10,474 nt of DNA from a virus (IMGVR_UViG_2698536570_000004); one strand, 5' to 3'. Shown: positions 1 through 10,474, counted from the first letter of the stretch. Notes: generated by a model not told the origin, from the sequence alone. Numbers and translations: made by a program.

Positions 1-711
1 CTGACTGAGCCGCACTTCAGAGATGAAAAACCGTTTGACGCCATCGTATCTAACCCACCGTATTCGGTGAAATGGATTGGCAGCGATGACCCGACGCTGA
101 TTAACGATGAACGTTTTGCCCCGGCTGGCGTTCTGGCCCCCAAATCCAAAGCTGACTTTGCGTTTGTATTACATGCGCTGAACTATCTTTCTGCCAAAGG
201 TCGTGCTGCGATTGTCTGCTTCCCGGGCATTTTTTACCGTGGCGGCGCGGAGCAGAAAATCCGTCAGTATCTGGTTGAAAATAACTATGTCGAAACCGTG
301 ATTTCACTGGCACCGAACCTGTTCTTTGGCACCACCATTGCCGTAAATATTCTGGTGCTGTCTAAACATAAAACGGATACCAAAGTTCAGTTTATTGACG
401 CCAGCGAACTGTTCAAAAAAGAGACTAACAACAACATCCTGACCGATGCCCATATCGAAAAAATTATGCAGGTATTTTCCAGCAAGGAAGATGTTGCTCA
501 TCTGGCGAAATCTGTCACGTTTGAGACCGTTGTCGCGAATGACTATAACCTGTCGGTAAGCAGCTATGTGGAAGCGAAAGATAACCGCGAAATTATCGAT
601 ATCGGTGAGCTGAATGCTGAGCTGAAAACCACGGTCAGCAAAATCGACCAGTTGCGTAAAGATATTGATGCAATTGTGGCTGAAATTGAAGGCTGCGAGG
701 TGCAAAAATGA
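1..711 (+). CDS. hsdM: Type I restriction-modification methyltransferase subunit HsdM, C-terminal part (5' end lies upstream of the window)
   Basis: Frame 1 is open from nt 1 to TGA at 709-711. Translation from nt 1 gives [25 protein letters not shown]..., with the N6-adenine methyltransferase NPPY motif at nt 52-63. The stop overlaps the hsdS start (ATGA at 708-711). The 67..711 ORF in the track is the same frame starting at an internal GTG. Confidence 0.9.
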
Positions 712-1964
712 GCGAGTTAAGTTATCTGGAAAAATTGCTGGATGGGGTTGAGGTTGAGTGGAAACCCTTGAAGGATGTTTGTGATTTTAAAAATGGATTT
801 GCATTTAAAAGCAGCTTATTTAAAGAAACTGGGTTACCGATAGTCAGAATCACAAATATAGATGGATTTAATGTTGACTTAGATGAGGTGAAATACTTTT
901 CACTAAATGATTACAAGGAAGATTTATCCTCCTTTGAGGTATCTATGGGAAATATATTGATTGCAATGTCAGGTGCCACTACAGGAAAGGTAGGAATTTA
1001 TAAAAAAGGAACAAAATGTTATCTTAACCAACGGGTTGGGAAATTCATACCCAAAGAAAATATTCTAAACAATAATTATTTATACCATTTTTTATTGTTA
1101 AATACAGAGACTATTTATATCCTCGCCGGGGGCGGAGCACAACCGAACCTAAGCTCAAATGCATTGATGTCAAAACTACTCATCCCAATCCCTTGCCCGG
1201 ATAATCCGGAAAAATCCCTTGCCATCCAGTCTGAAATCGTTCGGATTCTGGATAAATTTACTGCACTTACCGCTGAGCTTACCGCTGAGCTTAACATGCG
1301 TAAAAAACAGTACAACTACTATCGCGACCAATTGCTGAGTTTTGATGAGGGTGAGGTTGAGTGGAAGGCATTGGGAGAAGTAGCCAAAATACAACGAGGG
1401 GCATCCCCCAGACCAATTGTTAATTATCTTACTGAACAAGGAAATGGTATCCCATGGATTAAAATCGGAGATACTATACCCGGCTCTAAATACATTGACA
1501 AAACCTTACAAAAAATAACTGCAGAGGGTGCCCAAAAATCGCGAATCTTGAACCCCGGTGATTTCGTCATTTCTAACTCTATGAGCTTTGGCAGACCATA
1601 TATTTTAAGGATAACCGGAGCTATCCATGATGGATGGGCATCAATCAGCAATTTTGGTGAAAAATTAAATGCTGATTATCTGTATCACTATCTTTCATCA
1701 AAAAAGGTGAAAAATTATTGGGAAAGTAAAATCAATAGCGGGTCGGTCAGTAACTTGAATGCAGATATTATAAAAACATTACCAGTGCCATTGCCTGATA
1801 AACAGAAACAAGAGCGAATATCTGCTCTGCTCGATAAATTCGACACCCTGACCAACTCCATCACCGAAGGTCTTCCGCGTGAAATCGAGTTGCGCCAGAA
1901 ACAATACGAGTACTATCGTGATTTACTGTTCAGTTTCCCAACACCTGAAACTGTCAGTAATTAA
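708..1964 (+). CDS. hsdS: Type I restriction-modification specificity subunit HsdS (418 aa), type IC-like
   Basis: ATG at 708 overlaps the hsdM stop. The protein has the HsdS architecture: two variable target-recognition domains separated by a conserved central region (...[33 protein letters not shown]) and a matching C-terminal conserved region (...[36 protein letters not shown]). The tandem TAEL repeat is the signature of the EcoR124I family as I recall it. Confidence 0.92.
1266..1293 (+). repeat. Tandem 12-bp repeat CTTACCGCTGAG x2 plus partial third unit (CTTA), encoding LTAELTAEL in the HsdS central conserved region
   Basis: Direct reading: 1266-1277 and 1278-1289 are identical 12-mers in frame with hsdS, and 1290-1293 repeats the first 4 nt. 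Confidence 0.9.
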
Positions 1965-2085
1965 TTGACCATTGCTACCGACCGGGCCACCTTAACACCC
2001 GGTCTGTATATAGACTATTTTTTACGCGCCGGAAGTCACTCTTAACGCCCTTCCGGCCCTTGCCAGGCGGCACAAAGGATGCGCT
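1965..2085 (+). promoter_or_regulatory. hsdS-hsdR intergenic region: probable hsdR promoter region, two stem-loops and the hsdR ribosome-binding site
   Basis: The 121-bp gap holds stem-loop 1 (GACCGGG 1980-1986 / CCCGGTC 1998-2004) and stem-loop 2 (GCCGGAAG 2028-2035 / CTTCCGGC 2050-2057). Both loops contain CTTAAC. There is a TATATA at 2007-2012, a T-run at 2018-2023, and AAGGAT 6 nt upstream of the ATG at 2086. No clean -35/-10 pair could be fixed by eye. Confidence 0.4.
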
Positions 2086-5000
2086 ATGACTCATCAAACA
2101 CACACCATTGCTGAATCCAATAACTTTATCGTCCTTGATAAGTACATCAAAGCTGAGCAAACAGGCGACAGCTACCAGAGCGAATCGGACCTGGAACGTG
2201 AACTGATTCAGGACCTGCGGAATCAGGGCTATGAATTTATATCCGTAAAATCTCAGTCGGCTATGCTGTCCAATGTTCGGGAACAGCTTCAGAGCCTCAA
2301 TGGTGTGGTGTTTAATGACAGCGAGTGGCGGCGTTTCACGGAGCAGTATCTGGACAACCCGAGCGATGGCATTCTGGATAAGACCCGTAAAATCCATATC
2401 GACTATATTTGCGACTTTATTTTTGATGACGAGCGACTTGAGAACATCTATTTGATAGATAAAAAGAATCTCATGCGCAATAAGGTGCAGATTATCCAGC
2501 AGTTTGAACAGACGGGTTCTCATGCTAACCGTTATGACGTCACGATCCTGGTTAATGGCTTACCACTGGTACAAATCGAACTGAAAAAGCGCGGCGTGGC
2601 GATTCGTGAGGCTTTCAACCAGATACATCGTTACAGTAAAGAGAGTTTTAACAGCGAAAATTCCCTGTTTAAGTATCTGCAACTGTTTGTCATTTCTAAC
2701 GGCACCGATACCCGTTATTTTGCCAACACAACAAAGCGCGATAAAAACAGTTTTGACTTCACCATGAACTGGGCGAAATCAGACAACACGCTGATTAAAG
2801 ACCTCAAAGATTTTACCGCTACCTTTTTCCAGAAACATACTCTGCTTAATGTTCTGGTGAACTACAGCGTTTTTGACAGCAGTCAGACGCTACTGGTGAT
2901 GCGACCGTACCAGATTGCTGCCACCGAGCGCATTCTGTGGAAAATTAAGAGCTCCTTTACAGCGAAGAACTGGTCAAAACCGGAAAGCGGTGGGTATATC
3001 TGGCACACTACCGGTTCTGGTAAAACCCTCACCAGCTTTAAAGCCGCGCGTCTGGCAACAGAGCTGGACTTTATTGATAAAGTCTTCTTCGTGGTCGACA
3101 GGAAAGACCTCGATTACCAGACCATGAAGGAATATCAGCGTTTTTCGCCAGACAGCGTCAACGGCTCGGAAAATACCGCAGGCCTTAAACGAAATCTGGA
3201 TAAGGACGATAACAAAATTATCGTCACTACTATTCAGAAACTCAATAACCTGATGAAAGCAGAAAGCGACCTGCCTGTATATAATCAGCAAGTGGTGTTT
3301 ATATTTGATGAATGCCACCGCAGCCAGTTTGGAGAAGCGCAGAAAAACCTGAAGAAGAAATTCAAACGCTATTATCAGTTTGGTTTTACCGGCACCCCTA
3401 TTTTCCCGGAAAACGCCTTAGGCTCAGAAACAACCGCCAGCGTATTTGGTCGTGAATTGCATTCGTATGTAATTACCGATGCGATTCGTGACGAAAAAGT
3501 GCTCAAATTCAAGGTGGACTACAACGATGTGCGGCCACAGTTTAAGTCTTTAGAGACAGAAACTGACGAGAAAAAACTGAGTGCGGCTGAAAATCAGCAG
3601 GCGTTTCTTCATCCCATGCGTATTCAGGAAATCACGCAATATATTCTGAATAATTTCCGCCAGAAAACCCACCGTACCTTCCCTGGCTCAAAAGGTTTTA
3701 ATGCTATGTTGGCAGTGAGCAGCGTGGATGCTGCAAAAGCCTATTACGCGACGTTTAAACGGTTACAAGAGGAAGCAGCTAATAAATCGGCCACCTATAA
3801 ACCGCTGCATATTGCGACAATCTTCTCCTTTGCTGCCAATGAAGAACAAAATGCCATTGGTGAAATTTCCGATGAAACTTTTGATACCAGCGCAATGGAC
3901 AGCAGTGCTAAAGAGTTTCTTGATGCTGCAATTCGTGAGTATAACAGCTATTTTAAAACTAACTTCAGCACCGACAGTAACGGTTTTCAGAACTACTATC
4001 GTGATTTAGCCCAGCGGGTTAAAAATCAGGATATCGATCTGTTAATTGTCGTGGGGATGTTTTTAACTGGCTTCGATGCTCCAACATTGAACACGCTATT
4101 CGTCGATAAAAACCTGCGTTTTCACGGCTTGATGCAGGCATTTTCCCGCACCAACCGTATTTATGATGCAACTAAAACCTTCGGTAATATCGTCACTTTC
4201 CGGGATCTGGAACGCTCAACTATTGATGCCATAACGCTGTTTGGTGACAAAAATACCAAAAATGTGGTTTTAGAAAAGAGTTATGCAGAGTATATGGAAG
4301 GCTTTACTGATGCTGCCACTGGTGAAGCTAAACGCGGCTTCATGACAGTAGTTTCAGAACTGGAACAACGGTTCCCTGACCCTACCAGTATTGAAAGTGA
4401 AAAAGAGAAGAAAGACTTCGTTAAACTGTTTGGTGAATACCTGCGTACCGAGAACATCCTGCAAAACTATGATGAATTTGCCACGCTGAAAGCCCTGCAA
4501 CAAATCGATCTTAGCGATCCTGTTGCAGTAGAAAAATTCAAAGCAGAACATTATGTGGATGATGAAAAGCTCGCTGAATTGCAAACAATTCGTCTCCCTG
4601 CTGATCGCAAGATTCAGGATTATCGTTCTGCCTATAACGATATTCGCGACTGGCAGCGCCGTGAGAAAGAAGCTGAGAAAAAAGAGAAATCAACCACTGA
4701 CTGGGATGACGTAGTTTTTGAGGTCGATTTGCTGAAGTCTCAGGAAATAAACCTGGATTATATCCTTGGACTGATTTTCGAACACAACAGACAAAATAAA
4801 GGCAAGGGCGAAATGATCGAAGAGGTCAAACGCTTAATTCGTTCAAGCCTAGGGAACCGTGCTAAAGAGGGCCTGGTGGTCGATTTTATTCAGCAAACGA
4901 ACCTGGATGATTTACCGGACAAAGCCAGCATCATTGACGCATTCTTTACGTTTGCTCAACGCGAACAGCAACGTGAAGCAGAAGCATTGATAAAAGAAGA

Positions 5001-5202
5001 AAATCTCAATGAAGATGCAGCAAAACGCTATATTCGCACGTCTTTAAAACGCGAATACGCCACCGAAAATGGCACAGAATTAAACGAAACATTACCAAAA
5101 CTTAGTCCGTTGAATCCGCAATATAAAACGAAAAAACAGGCAGTTTTCCAGAAAATCGTCTCGTTTATTGAGAAGTTTAAAGGCGTAGGCGGAAAAATAT
5201 AG
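2086..5202 (+). CDS. hsdR: Type I restriction enzyme R subunit HsdR (1038 aa), type IC-like
   Basis: A 3117-nt ORF with an RBS. It has an N-terminal PD-(D/E)xK-like nuclease region (...[19 protein letters not shown]...), Walker A TGSGKT (about nt 3010-3027), a DEAH-type motif II as DECH (nt 3307-3318), and a TGTP motif III. Its length and co-linearity with hsdM-hsdS fit the EcoR124I-type HsdR as I recall it. Confidence 0.95.
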
Positions 5203-5218
5203 CCCAATTCGTATTTTT

Positions 5219-5246
5219 CTTGCGGGTTCTTAATTAAACCCGCAAG
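5219..5246. other. Stem-loop between convergent hsdR and a minus-strand small ORF (10-bp stem CTTGCGGGTT / AACCCGCAAG, loop CTTAATTA); possible non-canonical terminator
   Basis: A perfect 10-bp inverted repeat read directly. No U-run follows on either strand (TTTTT precedes it on +), so its terminator function is uncertain. Confidence 0.3.
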
Positions 5247-5281
5247 AGACCGTGGGGTTCCAAATGGCTAATATACTCCCC

Positions 5282-5368
5282 TTACCCATGCGCGACAATG
5301 CTGCCAAAAGTGATAGAGAACAGCCAGAAATAGATCGCGGCCATAATGATTTTGAATGCCGTGTTCAT
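5282..5368 (-). CDS. Candidate small hydrophobic protein (28 aa, MNTAFKIIMAAIYFWLFSITFGSIVAHG); small membrane peptide or type I toxin-like
   Basis: ATG at 5368 (minus) is preceded by AGGAG with an 8-nt spacer. The 28 codons are strongly hydrophobic and end at TAA (5282-5284). A possible sigma70-like promoter (TTGATA, 17 nt, GAAAAT) lies upstream on the minus strand around 5425-5455. A 41-codon ORF on the opposite strand (5264-5389) overlaps it, so the coding strand is not settled. Confidence 0.3.
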   Translation of the reverse strand: MNTAFKIIMAAIYFWLFSITFGSIVAHG

Positions 5369-5395
5369 ATCTTCAGCTCCTGTGATTGATTTGAT

Positions 5396-5430
5396 ACATG
5401 CCGCGCCCCTTGCGGCATGTTTTTATTTTC
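5396..5430 (+). terminator. Rho-independent terminator-like hairpin on the + strand (stem ACATGCCGC / GCGGCATGT followed by TTTTTATTTTC)
   Basis: A 9-bp GC-rich stem (5396-5404 / 5412-5420) with a 7-nt loop, followed directly by a T-rich run to 5430. On the minus strand the same hairpin would sit in the 5' UTR of the small ORF at 5368. Confidence 0.55.
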
Positions 5431-5456
5431 ACCTTCTCTGCTTTAAATATCAAGAT

Positions 5457-5469
5457 TTATTAGAGCAAT
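5457..5469 (+). repeat. 13-bp motif TTATTAGAGCAAT, copy 1; followed by TATTGCT, making the palindrome AGCAAT-T-ATTGCT (5464-5476)
   Basis: Exact 13-mer shared with 7599-7611 and, as reverse complement, with 7546-7558. It overlaps the stop codon of the minus-strand phosphatase gene. Confidence 0.7.
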
Positions 5470-5975
5470 TATTGCTGATGAAGAAGCGCGTTTTCATACT
5501 CCCTGACCATTAACGTAAGCACGCCGTGACGCCTGAAAACACGCGCCACTTCAATCTTATCTTCCAGCGCGAACGCAATTTTGCTTAGACCAATTTTCTT
5601 AAGGAGATCAATCTTTGCTGGACCGTCATTTCTGTCATCGGTGGCAGGACGCATAGATAGCAAAGGCTCATCCCCGTTTGTTACGTACTTTCGCAGCCAG
5701 GCTCATGTTTTATCCCTTGCGATCTCACAGCGCCCGGTTACAAACCAGACCGTGTAAACGTTATATAACTGGCGCACAATATCAATAACTGGAGTTATGG
5801 GAGTATCAGTGTCACAGGCGAGATTAAACTCGTTCCAGTCCTTTGTTAATGCACCTTTACCTGGTGGCGGAAGCAAATGCAGTCTGTCTTCAGTTGCCTC
5901 TGATATTGTTCCATCAATATCAACTATGACGATATACGGACGTTCATGGTGTGCGTGTTGGTTGAAAATACTCAA
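5469..5975 (-). pseudogene. HAD-superfamily phosphatase resembling phage polynucleotide kinase 3'-phosphatase domains, interrupted by an in-frame TGA
   Basis: TTG start at 5975 preceded by a strong SD (GAGGAGG). The N-terminal part has HAD motif I (IVIVDIDGT) and, from recall of T4 Pnk, a ...CDTD..TGR... segment. The frame hits TGA at 5703-5705 and then continues in the same frame to TAA at 5469-5471, with a DDR-containing C-terminal part. The track shows this as two ORFs (5703..5975 and 5469..5663) in one frame. Confidence 0.55.
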
Positions 5976-5992
5976 ATGCCCTCCTCATTGGA

Positions 5993-6029
5993 CGAAAAAA
6001 ATGCTGGTGGGACGCACTCCACCAGCATT
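5993..6029 (-). terminator. Rho-independent terminator for the minus-strand 420-aa gene (stem AATGCTGGTGG / CCACCAGCATT followed by a U-run on the minus strand)
   Basis: An 11-bp perfect inverted repeat (6000-6010 / 6019-6029) with an 8-nt loop. The A-run at 5995-6000 on + gives a T-run immediately 3' of the hairpin on the minus strand. It lies 20 nt downstream of the stop at 6049-6051. Confidence 0.65.
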
Positions 6030-6048
6030 AAAAGTGACACTGTAACTA

Positions 6049-7311
6049 TCAGCGAACGTAAATAGTACCGCCGTTCTCTTTTTCCCATGCATCGCTACGT
6101 GCATAGCAAACATCGAGAAGTCTTCTTGCCGCAGTTTCTTCTAAACCCAATTCAACAACCAACTGCTCATGACGGCGGGTAACTACATCAAATAGGCTAT
6201 GCAGCCCTTTATTGGCCAGTTCATCAATGAATTCCGGTTCGAACGGTAGCTCTGCATCTGCCAACATAACCTCTTGCGCCCACTCGACACGGCGGACCAG
6301 TTCCGGGCGGCGGCTTTCCATCTCTTTACAGATCATTTCATGGAAGAACTCTACCCAACCTTCCGGCTGGAACTCGCGGAAAATGGCCAACGGCTGGAAG
6401 TTTGGCATCAACCATTCGTTGATACGGATATCAATGGCATAGCCCATGTCACAGCAGAACTGATAAGCAAAGTCCAGCTTAGAAACGATATAAGGACGCT
6501 CGTTATTGAACTCTTTAGGCGATGAGATTCCATAAGCCAGGAGGCGCGGGAAGAATGAGATTTGCCCTAACGTCGGATGGAGTTTGCTTGCAGGAAAACG
6601 GCGCTCAGTAATGCCATACATTTCCTTCTTGAGCATCGCAAATTTAGCATTTTCATTAACCAGCTCGGTAACCTCTGCTTTTTTATTAGCAAATGCCACG
6701 CGCGCCTCGCTTGCATCTTTAATAGCCTTTTTGAGCTGTTGGTTAAGGTCGGCGACCTGCTTACGCAGTTCCTGGCGCTCGCTTTTGGCTTTGTTATAAC
6801 GTTTCTCAAGGTTAAAAGGATCAAGTTTCATGATCTCTTTATATTGAGATTTTAGTGTTGAAATCTGTGAATTCCGCAGCTCAACCATAGCGGTCATTTC
6901 ATTGAGTTTTGTTTCCAACTCAATGCTTATACGTTCGGCATTATCAGCACGCTGGTTGGCGTCATGCGTCGCATCGTCGATGGCATCCTGTTGCTGGCGT
7001 TTCAAATGCTCAATTTGCAGCTGAAGATCTTCAATTTCTTTACCCTTCAGACCGAGATCCAACTGCATATTTTCAGCTGCATCTACCAGGTCGTTATGGC
7101 TATCAGCTTCTGCGTTATAAACATCAATAAGCTGTGCGTGAAGCATCTCAGCTGACTGAACCGCATTATCAAAAAAACGTGCTGTGAGGTCATCACAACT
7201 AACGCGGCGTTGCGCGGCTCGGATGTTCTGAATAATGGCCGGGATACCGGCATTCAGGACGTCAGGGATAGATACATTTTCGATTGATTGGTTTTGTGCT
7301 GAAGTGCTCAT
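6049..7311 (-). CDS. Hypothetical protein (420 aa): N-terminal coiled-coil region of about 230 aa rich in Q/E/K/A, and a C-terminal globular domain of unknown function
   Basis: A long ORF with the ATG at 7311 one nucleotide downstream of the preceding gene's stop, and its own terminator after the stop. No catalytic motif recognised. Confidence 0.75.
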   Translation of the reverse strand: MSTSAQNQSIENVSIPDVLNAGIPAIIQNIRAAQRRVSCDDLTARFFDNAVQSAEMLHAQLIDVYNAEADSHNDLVDAAENMQLDLGLKGKEIEDLQLQIEHLKRQQQDAIDDATHDANQRADNAERISIELETKLNEMTAMVELRNSQISTLKSQYKEIMKLDPFNLEKRYNKAKSERQELRKQVADLNQQLKKAIKDASEARVAFANKKAEVTELVNENAKFAMLKKEMYGITERRFPASKLHPTLGQISFFPRLLAYGISSPKEFNNERPYIVSKLDFAYQFCCDMGYAIDIRINEWLMPNFQPLAIFREFQPEGWVEFFHEMICKEMESRRPELVRRVEWAQEVMLADAELPFEPEFIDELANKGLHSLFDVVTRRHEQLVVELGLEETAARRLLDVCYARSDAWEKENGGTIYVR

Positions 7312-7312
7312 T

Positions 7313-7531
7313 TCAAAGTTCCGTATTAGCTTGTGCTTCGGTCATTTTTCCTAAGTATGAAGGTGGAAGGACTACGCAATTTGTATCCAGTCCCTCACCA
7401 ATGGCAGCCTGTAAAATTCTGGCTAAGGTGAGTCTCTTGTTGCGATACCGGGTGATGACATGCCTGATATCGCCGGACGGTGTAACAAAGGCGATCAGCC
7501 AGTAGTGATATTTCCGTCGGAATGGCCACAT
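7313..7531 (-). CDS. Hypothetical small protein (72 aa)
   Basis: ATG at 7531 preceded by AGGTG with a 4-nt spacer; the stop at 7313-7315 lies 1 nt from the start of the 420-aa gene, suggesting co-translation. No recognised family. Confidence 0.5.
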   Translation of the reverse strand: MWPFRRKYHYWLIAFVTPSGDIRHVITRYRNKRLTLARILQAAIGEGLDTNCVVLPPSYLGKMTEAQANTEL

Positions 7532-7545
7532 AGTGCACCTTATGG

Positions 7546-7558
7546 ATTGCTCTAATAA
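7546..7558 (-). repeat. 13-bp motif, inverted copy (ATTGCTCTAATAA on +, which is TTATTAGAGCAAT on -)
   Basis: Exact reverse complement of the 13-mer at 5457-5469 and 7599-7611. With the 7599-7611 copy it forms a 13-bp inverted repeat flanking a 40-bp spacer. Confidence 0.7.
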
Positions 7559-7583
7559 AAAACGTGATGAGTGTACATCACGT
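7555..7583 (-). terminator. Candidate rho-independent terminator on the minus strand after the 233-aa gene (stem ACGTGATG / CATCACGT, loop AGTGTA, then T-run on the minus strand)
   Basis: An 8-bp perfect inverted repeat (7562-7569 / 7576-7583). The A-run at 7554-7561 on + gives TTTTTTATT directly 3' of the hairpin on the minus strand. Confidence 0.45.
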
Positions 7584-7598
7584 ATTAAAAATATGGAA

Positions 7599-7611
7599 TT
7601 ATTAGAGCAAT
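7599..7611 (+). repeat. 13-bp motif TTATTAGAGCAAT, copy 3
   Basis: Exact direct repeat of 5457-5469. It lies immediately 3' of the stop codon (7613-7615) of the 233-aa minus-strand gene. Confidence 0.7.
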
Positions 7612-7612
7612 A

Positions 7613-8314
7613 TTATTCTAATTCTCGCTCAAAAAACGAGCTAATGAGGGGAAGCCAATCCTCTGACACTTCGCGAGGCCGCGGTTTGCCGTGGAAAAAG
7701 ATTATTCGGCAGTCCTTTGGTAATGTCCCATTCCCCCTGGAGTAACGCGCGCTCGCATATTTTGAACCAGGTTCCACAACATCGGCCTTGTAACTTACAA
7801 ACCATCCTGGATACAGATCCTGAAATGCTGGTGTGTCATCGCCCATAACCTTCCGCAAGAACCCCTGATCCCCCCAGCACTCAGTTGTAACACAACGAGC
7901 AATCCAACCTTCCGGATCTTGCCAGAATGCACTCCAGATATGCGCTTTTACACTATTTGGTATCCACAGAGCACCGCTGCCACGATATTGTGGATGGTAA
8001 AAATCCCTAAGCATGGTGAAGTTGGTTGGTGGATTCTCAAGAATTGGGCGTATATCACCGGCAATAACCGTGTCCAAATCCAGATAGAACAGATCATCGG
8101 TTATATCAGGTCGGAACAACTCGATTTTCGCCCACCAGCCACGGCACTTTTGCCACTGGTTGATTAATGGGACAACCTTAACGCCTGGCACATGTAAACG
8201 CTTCAGGTCTGTCAGGCAAATAATTTCATAGCCTTTTGGCAGTTGATTAACCAGCCACTGCACATCGGAAGCGTTATAGTCACCACCAGAGCGAAGAACT
8301 AAAGCAATCTTCAT
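7613..8314 (-). CDS. Hypothetical protein (233 aa), possibly a nucleotide-sugar glycosyltransferase-like enzyme (acidic LDLD, DxD-like motif)
   Basis: ATG at 8314 overlaps the upstream phosphatase stop (ATGA). It contains ...[13 protein letters not shown]... and a C-terminal ...[10 protein letters not shown]... segment. The glycosyltransferase call rests only on the DxD-like motif and is weak. Confidence 0.7.
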
Positions 8315-9003
8315 GCTGCACCATCACCTTTCACTTTCATCAATGTCAGGTTTCCGCAAAATACGGCACCAGTGTCGATATAATGCTGATTCCAGAATGT
8401 CTTCGGGCTTTTCACCGGAGTGTGACCAAAGATAAAACGATCTGCGCCCGAAATTTCGCCACCAATATCATCCATCGAATCACTGATACGCTCGCGCGCC
8501 CAGACAACGTTGAAAAGCGGCACCTCCTTACCGAATTGATATTCATTATCCGGATAGTCGGCATGAGCTATAACGATAGTTTCTTGCCCGGTGTTCAACT
8601 CAATGATATAGGGCAGTCGTCTTACCAACTCCACCAGCGCCCTGGCTAATATTTCCTGATCAGCGTCCAGCATGAAGAACCATTGACCGCCATTCATTAG
8701 CCAGTTATTCACGTTGCCATCAGGACTTAACGCATCAATCATCAGCCGCTCATGGTTGCCCATAACCGCTCTGAACCATGGCATCTGCAATAGCTCCAGG
8801 CATTTAACATTTTCGGTGCCGCGATCGATAAGGTCGCCGACCGATATCAGTAAATCCTGCGCCGGGTCAAAATCCACACGATGGAGTTCGGACATCAGTC
8901 TGGTGTAGCAACCATGCAGATCACCAACAACCCAGACATTCCTGTATTTGGTCCCGTCGATACGGTGATAAATTGTTGGTGCCATCATGTATTCTTCAGC
9001 CAT
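8311..9003 (-). CDS. Ser/Thr protein phosphatase of the calcineurin-like metallophosphatase family (lambda NinI / E. coli PrpA-PrpB-like)
   Basis: Metallophosphatase motifs GDLHG, GDLIDRG and GNHE, and a C-terminal ...[17 protein letters not shown]... The overall pattern matches lambda NinI-type phosphatases from recall. The likely true start is the second ATG pair (M6/M7, about 8985-8988), which overlaps the upstream gene's TGA. Confidence 0.88.
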
Positions 9004-9611
9004 TCTTTAAGAGTCATCTGCGGAATACCTCCCATTTTCCCGCATGAAACAACGTCAATCTGTTCACGCGCAGACTGGAATAACAAAGGCAGGTGACTTA
9101 GATTTTTTGGCGTGCCGCCGGAGTGAACGCGTGGTTCTTGCGTAGCGTCAACGCCCACCAGGGCTACATGTTTGAATCCGATATGGAAAGCCAGGTTCAG
9201 AGCACCATATGCACTATTGCCGCTGGCAATTTCATTCTCATCTTCGCAAAGGCCGAAATGTGCGGACCAGCGCCACGCCCACCACTCGGGAGAATTCGTA
9301 TTTTTTGGCTCCGTGCCGCGCTCAGCCACACGACGGAAGCACAGAACGCCGTCTCTGACCTCACGTTCTTTAACATTGGGTAGCGCCATGCAATAACAAA
9401 CACCACGGCGACGGCGGCCACGACCAACGCGCCGCATATTGTCTGGCGATGGATCAAGGGTGAAAAAATAAGAAGCGCGGTTAAGCCAGTCGATGGCCCC
9501 ATTGACCGCTATAATCGGCACTCCGCGCGGCGCAACAAAGTTTGCGGCGCTAGGGCCACTGCCGACGATAATAACGCGATCACTGCCTCTAAATTTATTC
9601 TTGGGAAACAT
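8985..9611 (-). CDS. Rossmann-type protein, paralog B (208 aa): N-terminal VGSGPS glycine loop, IIAVN strand, [26 protein letters not shown] motif; carries an Arg-rich insert ([11 protein letters not shown])
   Basis: ATG at 9611. The motif order matches the sialyltransferase GT42 / MptE-like (DUF115) pattern as I recall it. It is paralogous to the adjacent upstream gene, and the Arg-rich segment is encoded at about 9402-9434. Confidence 0.7.
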
Positions 9612-10171
9612 TGAATTGCACTGCTCCTACTTGCATTCAAAATATGTAAATCTGCGTGTTTTTTGCGGGTATCCAGGAACTGCTGTTGCCATTTTGAAAT
9701 AGACACCTGCGTTGGATTCCGTAGTGCTTGAGGGTGTGCTCCATGCCAATGAAGGCCGTTTTGCAGAGAACAGTCATAGCCGACTAATACAACTACTTCA
9801 GCCCCTGATTCAGCCGCCAGACTGATAGCCTGCGCGCCGCTATTAACCCCTTCAGCCGGTCCACAATATCGCCTGTACTCCAACGAAAATGATTTCGCCG
9901 CCGCCAGGTTGGCTGTCACTTTGCGGAATCTCCCTCCCGGTATGGTGGATCCGTATTGCTTCCACCATGACAAATCACCGGCGTATAAGGCATAAATGTC
10001 ATCGAACATCTGCCAGGAATTGTTAACCGCGATGATTGAACAGCCAGTTTTTTCTATAGCAGCACAGTCCTCACGAGTGAGTGACGGACCGCTACCGACA
10101 CAAAAAACAGTCCTAGTCGCCCTGGGTGGTATGTTCATTCTCAGCTGCAAATTCAGCCTCCAGGCGAGCAT
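9509..10171 (-). CDS. Rossmann-type protein, paralog A (209-220 aa): VGSGPS glycine loop, IIAVN, GVNSGAQAISLAAESGAEVVVLVGYD
   Basis: The ORF runs from 10171 to TAG at 9509-9511. The more likely start is the internal ATG at 10136-10138 (MNIPPRATRTVFCVGSGPS), which matches the spacing in paralog B. Its 3' end overlaps the start of paralog B by 103 nt in another frame. Confidence 0.7.
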   Translation of the reverse strand: MLAWRLNLQLRMNIPPRATRTVFCVGSGPSLTREDCAAIEKTGCSIIAVNNSWQMFDDIYALYAGDLSWWKQYGSTIPGGRFRKVTANLAAAKSFSLEYRRYCGPAEGVNSGAQAISLAAESGAEVVVLVGYDCSLQNGLHWHGAHPQALRNPTQVSISKWQQQFLDTRKKHADLHILNASRSSAIQCFPRINLEAVIALLSSAVALAPQTLLRRAECRL

Positions 10172-10268
10172 TCATTTCAGCGATTACCGGGTCCACTACA
10201 GCATCTGCTTCCTGTTCATTACGCGGCATGATCGATGCCAGCGATTCATAATTAGCCTTGGATGACAC
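10113..10268 (-). CDS. Hypothetical small acidic protein (51 aa, MSSKANYESLASIMPRNEQEADAVVDPVIAEMNARLEAEFAAENEHTTQGD)
   Basis: GTG at 10266-10268 preceded by GGGAGA with a 6-nt spacer. The stop overlaps the start region of paralog A. The track ORF 10113..10310 is the same frame extended upstream to a GTG with no RBS. Confidence 0.45.
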   Translation of the reverse strand: MSSKANYESLASIMPRNEQEADAVVDPVIAEMNARLEAEFAAENEHTTQGD

Positions 10269-10334
10269 GATTATTCTCCCGATGTTAATGTGCGCTATAT
10301 CAAAGAGCACACATGCACTAATTAATTTATTATT

Positions 10335-10474
10335 TCACGCAGCGTACAACCACTTGTCACCGTTCAATACATGCTCAATAGCCTCACCCTTTTTAAGGCT
10401 CATGTATTCCAGGAGGCACTGTTGCAAATAGTCGGTGGTGATAAACTTATCATCCCCTTTTGCTGATGGAGCTG
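10335..10474 (-). CDS. Hypothetical protein, C-terminal 45 codons only (gene continues beyond the right edge)
   Basis: The minus-strand frame is open from the window edge to TGA at 10335-10337 (...APSAKGDDKFITTDYLQQCLLEYMSLKKGEAIEHVLNGDKWLYAA). No family recognised from this fragment. Confidence 0.4.
   Translation of the reverse strand, partial: APSAKGDDKFITTDYLQQCLLEYMSLKKGEAIEHVLNGDKWLYAA

Follow-up and report, generated by a model that had tools for sequence, protein, structure and literature searches.

Glycosylation of virion proteins by phage-encoded enzymes has been described in the F1-cluster mycobacteriophages Che8 and Rita, whose glycosyltransferases modify the major capsid protein, according to the passages of PMC11256854 that cite Freeman et al. 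2023. Among enzymes of solved structure, the nearest relatives of the proteins considered below, namely Maf (which acts on flagellin), glycogenin, Gat1 and GlyE, work on proteins or protein-linked glycans. Relatives of the Maf/GT42 fold include transferases of ulosonic acids (sialic, pseudaminic and 3-deoxy-D-manno-octulosonic acid (Kdo) types) from cytidine monophosphate (CMP) donors, and WaaZ, which adds KdoIII to lipopolysaccharide (LPS), is placed in CAZy family GT73. Phage P1, widely used in genetics, has a block of 'putative morphogenetic' genes that has gone without an assigned function for twenty years. Here we analyze a copy of this block, the pmgN-pmgO-pmgP-ppp-pmgQ genes, on a 10,474-nucleotide stretch of viral DNA (IMGVR_UViG_2698536570_000004, hereafter the window), and suggest that pmgO, pmgP and pmgQ probably form a glycosyltransferase module.

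Nucleotide identity and gene order identify the region as P1's classical 'ppp operon', here borne by a P1-like phage-plasmid. Over positions 5600-10474, the sequence agrees fully (100% identity) with the 105-kb P1-like phage-plasmid of Escherichia coli AW1.7 (NZ_CP073625); identity is 96-98% with hundreds of E. coli plasmids of 90-100 kb and 96% with phages P1 and P7 (GenBank AF234172 and AF503408), whose records name the genes pmgM, pmgN (hdmA), pmgO (hdmB), pmgP (hdmC), ppp, pmgQ (hdmD), pmgR (shtA), pmgS (shtB) and pap. An earlier note on this DNA, made from the sequence alone, had called it a candidate uncharacterized modification system, but the locus is already known as pmgN-pmgQ in P1 and hdmA-D in P7, and PHROGs already calls homologs 'sialyltransferase' and 'glycosyltransferase'. 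'Putative morphogenetic' and 'head morphogenesis' are purely annotation names, without a biochemical function in the literature searched, and that search found no functional study of pmgO, pmgP or pmgQ or of phage DUF115/MptE-like or Maf-like enzymes. What appears to be new is that the triad is conserved, that its members occur fused, that it is tied in position to capsid genes and that capsid tails vary with it.

Results

A conserved triad in diderm bacteria and their phages

We searched genomes, viral contigs and isolated phages for the triad and compared about 60 related neighborhoods; the scan of viral contigs for PmgP beyond the P1 copies used an alignment led by a distant member. PmgO, PmgP and PmgQ are encoded together in genomes of Gamma-, Beta- and Alphaproteobacteria, Bacteroidota and Gemmatimonadota (Enterobacteriaceae, Pseudomonas, Zhongshania, Methylophilaceae, Brevundimonas, an Ochrobactrum-like genome, Commensalibacter, Sinomicrobium of the Bacteroidota and a Longimicrobiales genome), as well as in the isolated phages phiNP, IME392 and EP_H11 and in jumbo phages of Xanthomonas and Stenotrophomonas. 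The hosts of these phages include Citrobacter, Escherichia, Xanthomonas and Stenotrophomonas, and all triad hosts seen are diderm bacteria. PmgP is the most conserved member (a Pseudomonas prophage copy is 65% identical to that of P1, against 47% for PmgQ and 40% for PmgO), and its family comprises 581 clusters at E<=1e-3 among 1.84 billion representatives.

The three proteins are also joined in natural fusions, in the orders O-P (P0051), P-Q (P0301 and P0364) and Q-P (P0383), and fusions with a methyltransferase occur as Q-P-methyltransferase (P0348) and methyltransferase-P (P0389). Elsewhere the cassette carries a second GT-A-like protein (weak Nucleotid_trans match) and S-adenosylmethionine and FkbM methyltransferases, the associated methyltransferases being of the Methyltransf_23/24/25 and FkbM types; judged by their families, these extras are enzymes of the types usual in glycan tailoring. 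In the jumbo phage XacN1 (L193, 6324-8946), the PmgQ domain makes up the C-terminal half of the 438-residue ORF373, which follows the PmgO-like ORF375 and the PmgP-like ORF374 and adjoins ribonucleotide reductase genes.

The comparison of neighborhoods, which the earlier note had put forward as a check, bears out conservation across genomes for O-P-Q, whereas Ppp and PmgN are confined to part of the P1 lineage. PmgN is a small acidic protein (isoelectric point (pI) 4.2) restricted to P1-like elements. Ppp matches PF00149 (Metallophos, 1.4e-15, above cutoff) and the NinI-like PHROG 246 (7.5e-113), scores 279.7 bits against NCBIfam PRK11439, below the equivalog cutoff of 326, and is given 64% identity to the lambda phosphatase PP in the P1 annotation; these matches mark it as a lambda-PP/NinI-type metallophosphoesterase, in agreement with the NinI-like Ser/Thr phosphatase of the earlier note. 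That note had also counted the phosphatase as part of the module. Among the approximately 60 loci, no non-P1 copy has it, and several P1-like contigs carry O-P-Q-R-S without it. Because of this absence elsewhere we rejected Ppp as a module member, and its distribution marks it as an insert of the P1 lineage outside the conserved module.

Relationships of PmgO, PmgP and PmgQ

AlphaFold2 models of PmgO and PmgP built from homolog alignments were confident (pLDDT, a per-residue confidence score, 85.6 and 93.9, respectively), and the best structural matches of both were the Maf glycosyltransferase, archaeal MptE and Cst-I. Maf ranked first, covering 162 residues compared with 125-136 for the others. 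The models indicate that PmgO and PmgP share a Rossmann-like fold with Maf, Cst-I/II and archaeal MptE, much as the earlier note had supposed when it named a GT42/MptE-like fold. The motif order on which that note relied (a G-S-G-P-S loop, IIAVN, SG and G.D) was confirmed in alignments: the GxGPS loop, an Asn after strand 2, (N/T)SG and GxD are found in this order and are invariant in both families. In PmgO, the invariant residues are G28, P29, S30, N50, D66, S111, G112, G131, D133, C134, S135, H141, H143, N179 and R182, while PmgP has a Trp-rich motif, SPEWWAWRW; candidates for a catalytic His base are H141/H143/H146 of PmgO and H173 of PmgP. The motif blocks of both proteins are collinear with two N-terminal and mid-chain segments of Cst-II, in a hidden Markov model (HMM) alignment without statistical significance. 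Single-sequence searches of the PDB with PmgO or PmgP gave nothing useful, and NCBIfam gave no match for PmgO, PmgP or PmgQ.

Profile comparisons indicate that the paralogy of PmgO and PmgP, another claim of the earlier note, is real but distant. Pairwise BLASTP reached only E=0.004, while family HMMs, computed without the fusion P0051, cross-hit at 1e-4 to 1e-6 in two motif blocks, and PHROG cross-hits agree. Six residues (P, N, D, S, G and D) are invariant over both families in a joint alignment that included the O-P fusion, with the PmgO homologs aligned onto its PmgP half. The RefSeq/PGAP coding sequence of pmgO (WP_225858621, 9509-10009, 166 residues) starts at Met55 and lacks the GSGPS and IIAVN motifs; because homologs and the model extend through the GSGPS loop, the true start is placed upstream of this call, at ATG 10171 (the P1 annotation) or 10138.

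PmgQ has its best profile matches in Gat1 (6mw5, E=1.7e-8, profile positions 32-198), glycogenin-1 (1.5e-4) and the GT8 structure 5gvv (2.2e-4), and it matches PHROG 1962, 'glycosyltransferase', at 9e-127; the polyubiquitin rows in the same profile search are sums of sub-threshold repeats. K63, D79 and D81 (D79-L80-D81) are invariant, and G148-D149-Q150 (in G148-D-Q-G-F) and H208-G209-x-P211-x-P213 (in H208-G-K-P-R-P) reach at least 90% conservation. Alignment places the K, DxD, GDQG and C-terminal His motifs on those of Gat1 and glycogenin. Its profile and motifs identify PmgQ as a GT8-like (glycogenin/Gat1-type) GT-A glycosyltransferase, and the role in glycosylation that the earlier note had assigned to its 'DxD protein' gains support from these matches. 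Given this relationship of PmgQ, the same note's idea of a phage-derived glycosylation module is a fair reading.

Position next to capsid genes and covariation with capsid tails

In at least seven HK97-type lineages, the triad occupies one position, in the order TerL-portal-(protease)-major capsid-[O-P-Q]-head-tail connector, with the connector gene sometimes inside the module. We sampled capsid loci in two ways, as close relatives (L194-L273, 80 loci of one capsid, the L087 family) and as a diverse set (L278-L343). In the diverse set, 16 of the 66 loci have a PmgO-like gene 3' of the capsid gene, at a distance of -4 to 283 nucleotides except in one case of 912 nucleotides (15/16 within 300 nucleotides). 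In D3-like Pseudomonas phages, the capsid gene is followed by the PmgO-like orf7 and then by genes for the connector, head closure, a GT-B glycosyltransferase, a methyltransferase and the tail; in Pseudomonas phage PP9W2 (L274, with this stretch at 3691-6471), the PmgO-like gene (D3 orf7) is split into two coding sequences.

The C-terminal tail of the capsid protein varies with the presence of the gene. In the L087 family, all scored loci with a PmgO-like gene (42/42) have capsids ending in ...GSLT(A/S)S, and one further positive locus, whose flank was too short for scoring, ends in ...SLTAT; the O-P-Q loci L087 and L117 end in ...GSLSES. All of the gene-negative loci, at least 30 in number, have tails such as ...DLTAA, ...PLTPAA, ...PLIAAP and the like, with A or P as the final residue and neither of those serines. 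In a tree of capsids stripped of their tails, the O-P-Q pair L087/L117 lies beside a clade without the module, and the D3-like clade lies elsewhere. Ser is also the last capsid residue in each of the five other lineages that bear the module. In the diverse sample, a terminal Ser/Thr was found in 7/16 loci with the gene versus 2/38 without it (Fisher p=0.0016, for loci that are not phylogenetically independent); the pattern is perfect within a single family and loses strength in the diverse sample. The module-bearing P1 has a capsid protein, gp23, that ends in ...DAGDSE (C-terminal peptide ...ISGDTIDAGDSE), and that of the module-bearing JK004 ends in ...SSGKSE; the related phage D6 has no match to PmgP or PmgQ, and its capsid ends in ...GKVNEKK.

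Some copies lie between lysis genes and terminase, and PmgQ-PmgP is found between holin and lysozyme genes in Serratia and Buttiauxella. Chromosomal triads are interleaved with Big_1/inverse-autotransporter adhesin genes in five Enterobacteriaceae genomes (L093-L097, including Pseudescherichia) and in Serratia. PmgO is directly downstream of a 1178-residue intimin/invasin-like gene with no phage structural genes nearby, and in Serratia plymuthica (L086, 674-3115) it adjoins two Big_1 genes. Such a chromosomal triad may be a domesticated locus for adhesin glycosylation or secretion.

A proposed role in lytic-phase glycosylation

We consider it probable that PmgO, PmgP and PmgQ constitute a glycosyltransferase module. 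The full statement, that the module acts in the lytic phase and has a virion protein, the capsid, as its target, is one to which we give slightly less than an even chance. According to this proposal, PmgO and PmgP would be two divergent, cytoplasmic Maf/GT42-like transferases, and PmgQ a glycogenin-like, Mn-dependent retaining hexosyltransferase of GT8 using a uridine diphosphate (UDP) sugar. The three would cooperate, probably either within a complex or one step after another, with PmgO as the variable, acceptor-recognizing enzyme and PmgP and PmgQ extending the glycan, and the acceptor would most probably be the C-terminal tail of the capsid. In the plasmid prophage the operon is under repression by C1, and it is turned on in lytic growth. 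UDP-hexose may serve PmgQ, and CMP-Kdo is an attractive candidate donor for the Maf/GT42-like enzymes because genes for nonulosonic-acid synthesis are absent beside the module and every host seen is diderm. Among CMP-sugars, it alone is universal in such bacteria. E. coli K-12, a normal host of P1, is not known to make CMP-sialic acid, and sialic acid is therefore an unlikely donor. The benefit to the phage might be to shield or stabilize the virion outside laboratory conditions; we infer it, as we do the transferase activity, the donor sugars and the acceptor. The narrowest version, in which P1, the D3-like Pseudomonas phages and many HK97-type prophages O-glycosylate the capsid tail with a Kdo-containing glycan from CMP-Kdo, is tentative, and we think it rather unlikely.

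A number of observations speak against the capsid proposal. The covariation rests on few independent gain or loss events, and it has exceptions: a module-positive capsid ends in GDFI (L283), a module-negative one in SGSF (L287), and two module-positive loci (L004 and L130) have tails without Ser. P1 gp23 is from a different capsid family, and its comparison with D6 is a single case. Copies of the module also lie beside holin/lysozyme/Rz genes (L004, L086, L104, L116 and phiNP) and, in large phages, beside the ribonucleotide reductase or ligase genes of nucleotide metabolism, and post-capsid and lysis-adjacent sites are general landing places for phage accessory genes. No glycans have been reported on P1 virions, though the 2022 proteome and the N-terminal sequencing of gp23 were not aimed at glycans. 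In-frame deletions of pmgN, pmgO, pmgP, pmgQ, pmgS, ppp and pap leave P1 with normal plating and normal anti-restriction (PMC9024508), and pmgO, pmgP, ppp and pmgQ score as non-essential in P1 by CRISPR interference (PMC10695390). Furthermore, PmgP shows much stronger conservation than the capsids do, as would fit a host substrate that is itself conserved, and the basic pI of PmgO and PmgP resembles that of the LPS enzyme WaaZ. As for the families themselves, PmgQ matches no Pfam family at E<=10, the GT8 model included, and PmgO and PmgP score 23.4 and 21.0 bits against PF01973 (MptE-like), under the gathering threshold of 34.6 bits; this threshold is passed by the relatives P0051 (44.6 bits) and P0338 (44.1 bits), and many homologs have a precomputed match.

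The main rival, which we regard as unlikely, is remodeling of the LPS inner core. PmgO and PmgP would then do what WaaZ does and use CMP-Kdo to attach further residues of the Kdo type to Kdo2-lipid A, and PmgQ would work like the core hexosyltransferases of the WaaO/WaaJ type, so that LPS newly made in the lytic phase would be capped or truncated; the payoff would be loss of the phage receptor (for P1, core glucose), limiting superinfection or the loss of progeny on debris, or an outer membrane weakened at lysis. LPS core alpha-hexosyltransferases belong to GT8, all hosts seen are diderm, several copies reside within lysis cassettes, and a conserved acceptor, for instance Kdo2-lipid A, would lead one to expect the strong conservation of PmgP. 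E. coli WaaZ, too, gives a match to PF01973 (6.9e-7), a signal that it shares with PmgO and PmgP, the O-P fusion P0051 has a faint precomputed match to PF27901 (WaaZ_KDO_III), and PmgO (pI 9.0), PmgP (pI 9.7) and WaaZ are all basic. However, the direct profile match of PmgO to E. coli WaaZ is weak (hhalign probability 8%, E 0.004, C-terminal half only), and the nearest solved relatives of PmgQ are glycogenin and Gat1, with no LPS GT8 structure of the LgtC type matched even at E<=10. A short lytic cycle could presumably alter only newly made LPS, and the operon is repressed in the lysogen; lysogenic conversion was rejected, as the C1 operators speak against it. Nor does LPS remodeling account for the embedding between capsid and connector genes or for the covariation with capsid tails. 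Another possibility is that the same enzymology glycosylates some other protein, such as the tail tube, fibers, a decoration protein or a host protein during takeover. The adhesin-interleaved chromosomal triads fit this possibility, as do the module-bearing loci L004 and L130 with their capsid tails that are not Ser-rich, but across lineages the major capsid gene is the one to which position is most tightly linked, and no context examined offered a candidate host target, and we hold it to be quite unlikely.

Chemistry other than glycosylation seems less probable still. If one or both MptE-like proteins moved pyrophosphate from ATP to the hydroxymethyl group of a metabolite, as modeled on MptE and thiamine pyrophosphokinase and perhaps balanced by Ppp, the product would be a metabolite or signaling molecule made or destroyed. 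The fold alone would allow this, but it is very unlikely in our view: Maf is the structural match that covers the most residues, the motifs align with Cst-II segments, the obligate partner is a GT8 glycosyltransferase that is naturally fused to PmgP, and Ppp is absent from nearly all copies. Judged against an MptE-type function (ATP-dependent pyrophosphoryl transfer in a pterin pathway context), PmgO and PmgP did not fit. The earlier note had raised, as speculative, the hypermodification of DNA, which would mean glycosylated or pyrophosphorylated bases serving anti-restriction. Hypermodified bases are not known from P1 DNA. Phages do glycosylate their DNA with their own glycosyltransferases (bioRxiv 10.1101/2023.12.21.572611), the module adjoins ribonucleotide reductase genes in two large phages or contigs, and a restriction-modification locus is adjacent in the window. 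Yet neither the window nor the approximately 60 loci contain a thymidylate-synthase-like hydroxymethylase, a C5-methyltransferase/5mYOX (TET) pair or a JGT/T4-type DNA glycosyltransferase, and the methyltransferases associated with the module are small-molecule or sugar types rather than DNA methyltransferases. Plating and anti-restriction are unchanged in the P1 deletions (PMC9024508; see also PMC10695390), which therefore disfavors DNA hypermodification, and we consider it highly improbable.

The adjacent restriction-modification genes have, moreover, a separate history. The type I hsd cassette stands in place of pmgT-humD, between pap and phd/doc, only in the present plasmid as compared with P1, and this arrangement marks it as an unrelated cargo insertion; its adjacency is therefore no functional link, and we rejected the tie between pmg and hsd genes that the earlier note had drawn. 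The P1 record already mentions P1-like sequence around the EcoDXXI and R124 hsd loci.

Transcription units and neighboring genes

The reading frames of the operon, re-read in the window, are as the earlier note described them, including the ATGA stop/start overlaps at 8311-8314 and 8985-8988 (the latter between pmgP and ppp, using ppp ATG 8988) and the overlaps of 26 nucleotides between pmgN and pmgO (from ATG 10138) and 103 nucleotides between pmgO and pmgP. The GTG start of pmgN is 6 nucleotides downstream of a GGGAGA ribosome-binding site. What had been read as a partial edge gene is instead a 26-codon remnant of pmgM, cut by the IS26 end, and pmgL together with the P1 late promoter LPpmgL has been deleted. 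The counterpart of the predicted P1 promoter PpmgN is still present in the remnant, with one T-to-C change in the -10 hexamer (10340-10346; TACGCT here versus TATGCT in P1). Upstream of pmgN, the homolog of the C1 operator Oppp/Op83 has the same sequence as in P1 and falls below the reach of a consensus scan with 3 mismatches. Three matches to the C1 operator occur in the window, a number reached by 0/200 shuffles.

Two of the features between pmgQ and pmgR are operator matches and one is a terminator-like hairpin (Table 1), and the homolog of 7546-7611 is annotated in P1 as operators Op86a/b and promoter PpmgR; together they argue for pmgN-pmgQ as one transcription unit and pmgR-pmgS as another. 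The earlier note had run the operon on through the 72- and 420-residue genes to a terminator at 5993-6029: a hairpin is indeed present there, after pmgS, but the run-on does not hold, as a boundary follows pmgQ. In the present copy, expression of pmgN-pmgQ would need the C1-controlled promoter region or read-out from IS26.

Table 1. Features of the window, with positions counted from its first nucleotide
Feature	Position	Strand	Remarks
IS26 end	10415-10474		terminal inverted repeat GGCACTGTTGCAAA at 10415-10428
pmgM (VRR-NUC nuclease), 3' remnant	10335-10414	minus	26 codons + stop
Homolog of P1 C1 operator Oppp/Op83	10311-10327	plus	upstream of pmgN
pmgN (hdmA)	10113-10268	minus	51 aa; GTG start at 10268
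pmgO (hdmB), 'paralog A' of the earlier note	9509-10171	minus	220 aa; alternative ATG 10138 gives 209 aa
pmgP (hdmC), 'paralog B' of the earlier note	8985-9611	minus	208 aa
ppp	8311-9003	minus	230 aa; alternative ATG 8988
pmgQ (hdmD)	7613-8314	minus	233 aa
C1-operator match	7595-7611	minus	directly after pmgQ
Terminator-like hairpin and T-run	7583-7562	minus	surrounding fold z=-6.8
Inverted C1-operator match	7546-7562	plus	before pmgR
pmgR (shtA)	7313-7531	minus	72 aa; separate C1-controlled unit
pmgS (shtB)	6049-7311	minus	420-aa coiled-coil protein; outside the module
Terminator-like hairpin after pmgS	6029-6000	minus	11 bp stem, T-run
pap pseudogene (3'-phosphatase, HAD/PNKP-type)	5469-5975	minus	internal stop
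C1 operator Op88	5453-5469		1 mismatch to consensus; follows pap
Type I restriction-modification cassette (hsdM partial, hsdS, hsdR)	67-5202	plus

Along the window, the end of hsdM, hsdS and hsdR on the plus strand precede the minus-strand block, and a strong hairpin terminator lies 3' of hsdR at 5396-5420. pmgR is essential in P1, where its phenotype concerns the completion of heads or the joining of head and tail, while pmgS is non-essential. PmgS gave weak matches to SMC, LmuB and JetC models, all within its coiled-coil segment (approximately residues 45-230), which are most likely compositional, and a PADLOC scan gave only such coiled-coil noise, for PmgS. The G+C content of pmgN, pmgO and pmgP is 0.50-0.53, compared with 0.47-0.48 for the flanking P1 genes and 0.43 for hsdR; a higher G+C would be consistent with a horizontally acquired cassette.

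Discussion

If the capsid is the target, the range of virion glycosylation would widen from mycobacteriophages to phages infecting Gram-negative bacteria, among them the P1-like phage-plasmids that spread resistance genes and the D3-like Pseudomonas phages. This would matter for how antibodies recognize such phages, for their stability and for their therapeutic use, and a small, portable cassette for protein glycosylation would have been defined. If the Kdo-glycan version held true, Kdo would have gained a new use, and a virion glycosylation system would be on record for the first time beyond the actinobacteriophages. Should LPS prove to be the target, the triad would represent a new system of receptor editing in the lytic phase. 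With either target, the anti-restriction idea and the link to restriction-modification can be dropped.

Compared with the known systems, the locus is closest to the P1/P7 operon, with which it shares the gene set, the gene order, the C1 operators and the boundary between pmgQ and pmgR at 96% nucleotide identity. It differs from P1 in the removal of pmgL and most of pmgM by IS26, in the decay of pap to a pseudogene and in the replacement of pmgT-humD by hsd. Maf of Magnetospirillum (PDB 5mu5) has approximately 600 residues and additional domains for acceptor binding; PmgO and PmgP, catalytic cores of approximately 200 residues, are 16-17% identical to it, and the phage module comes without genes for nonulosonic-acid synthesis. 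For Cst-I and Cst-II of Campylobacter jejuni, the sequence scores against PmgO and PmgP are non-significant (E 0.18-1), and the lid region differs. WaaZ resembles the phage proteins in its PF01973 superfamily signal, in being basic and in a donor, CMP-Kdo, that would be available in every host seen, but its gene belongs to the chromosomal waa cluster, while theirs belong to late or lytic operons. In the glycogenin/Gat1 branch of GT8, approximately 170 residues are matched by PmgQ, with K, DxD, GDQG(F/L)L and H..G..P aligned; PmgQ is shorter (233 residues) and has a condensed H-G-K-P-R-P instead of H-x-x-G-x-x-K-P-W.

The Che8 glycans studied by Freeman and colleagues reportedly sit on C-terminal residues. 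As far as PMC11256854 describes Che8 and Rita, the proposed working principle would be the same there as here, with phage glycosyltransferases acting on the capsid, and the differences lie in the hosts, which are Actinobacteria, in the glycosyltransferases, which apparently belong to other families, and in the position of their genes near the right end of the genome rather than beside the capsid gene. Linkage of phage glycosyltransferases to structural genes, as looked for in virion glycosylation of the Che8 type, is found for O-P-Q.

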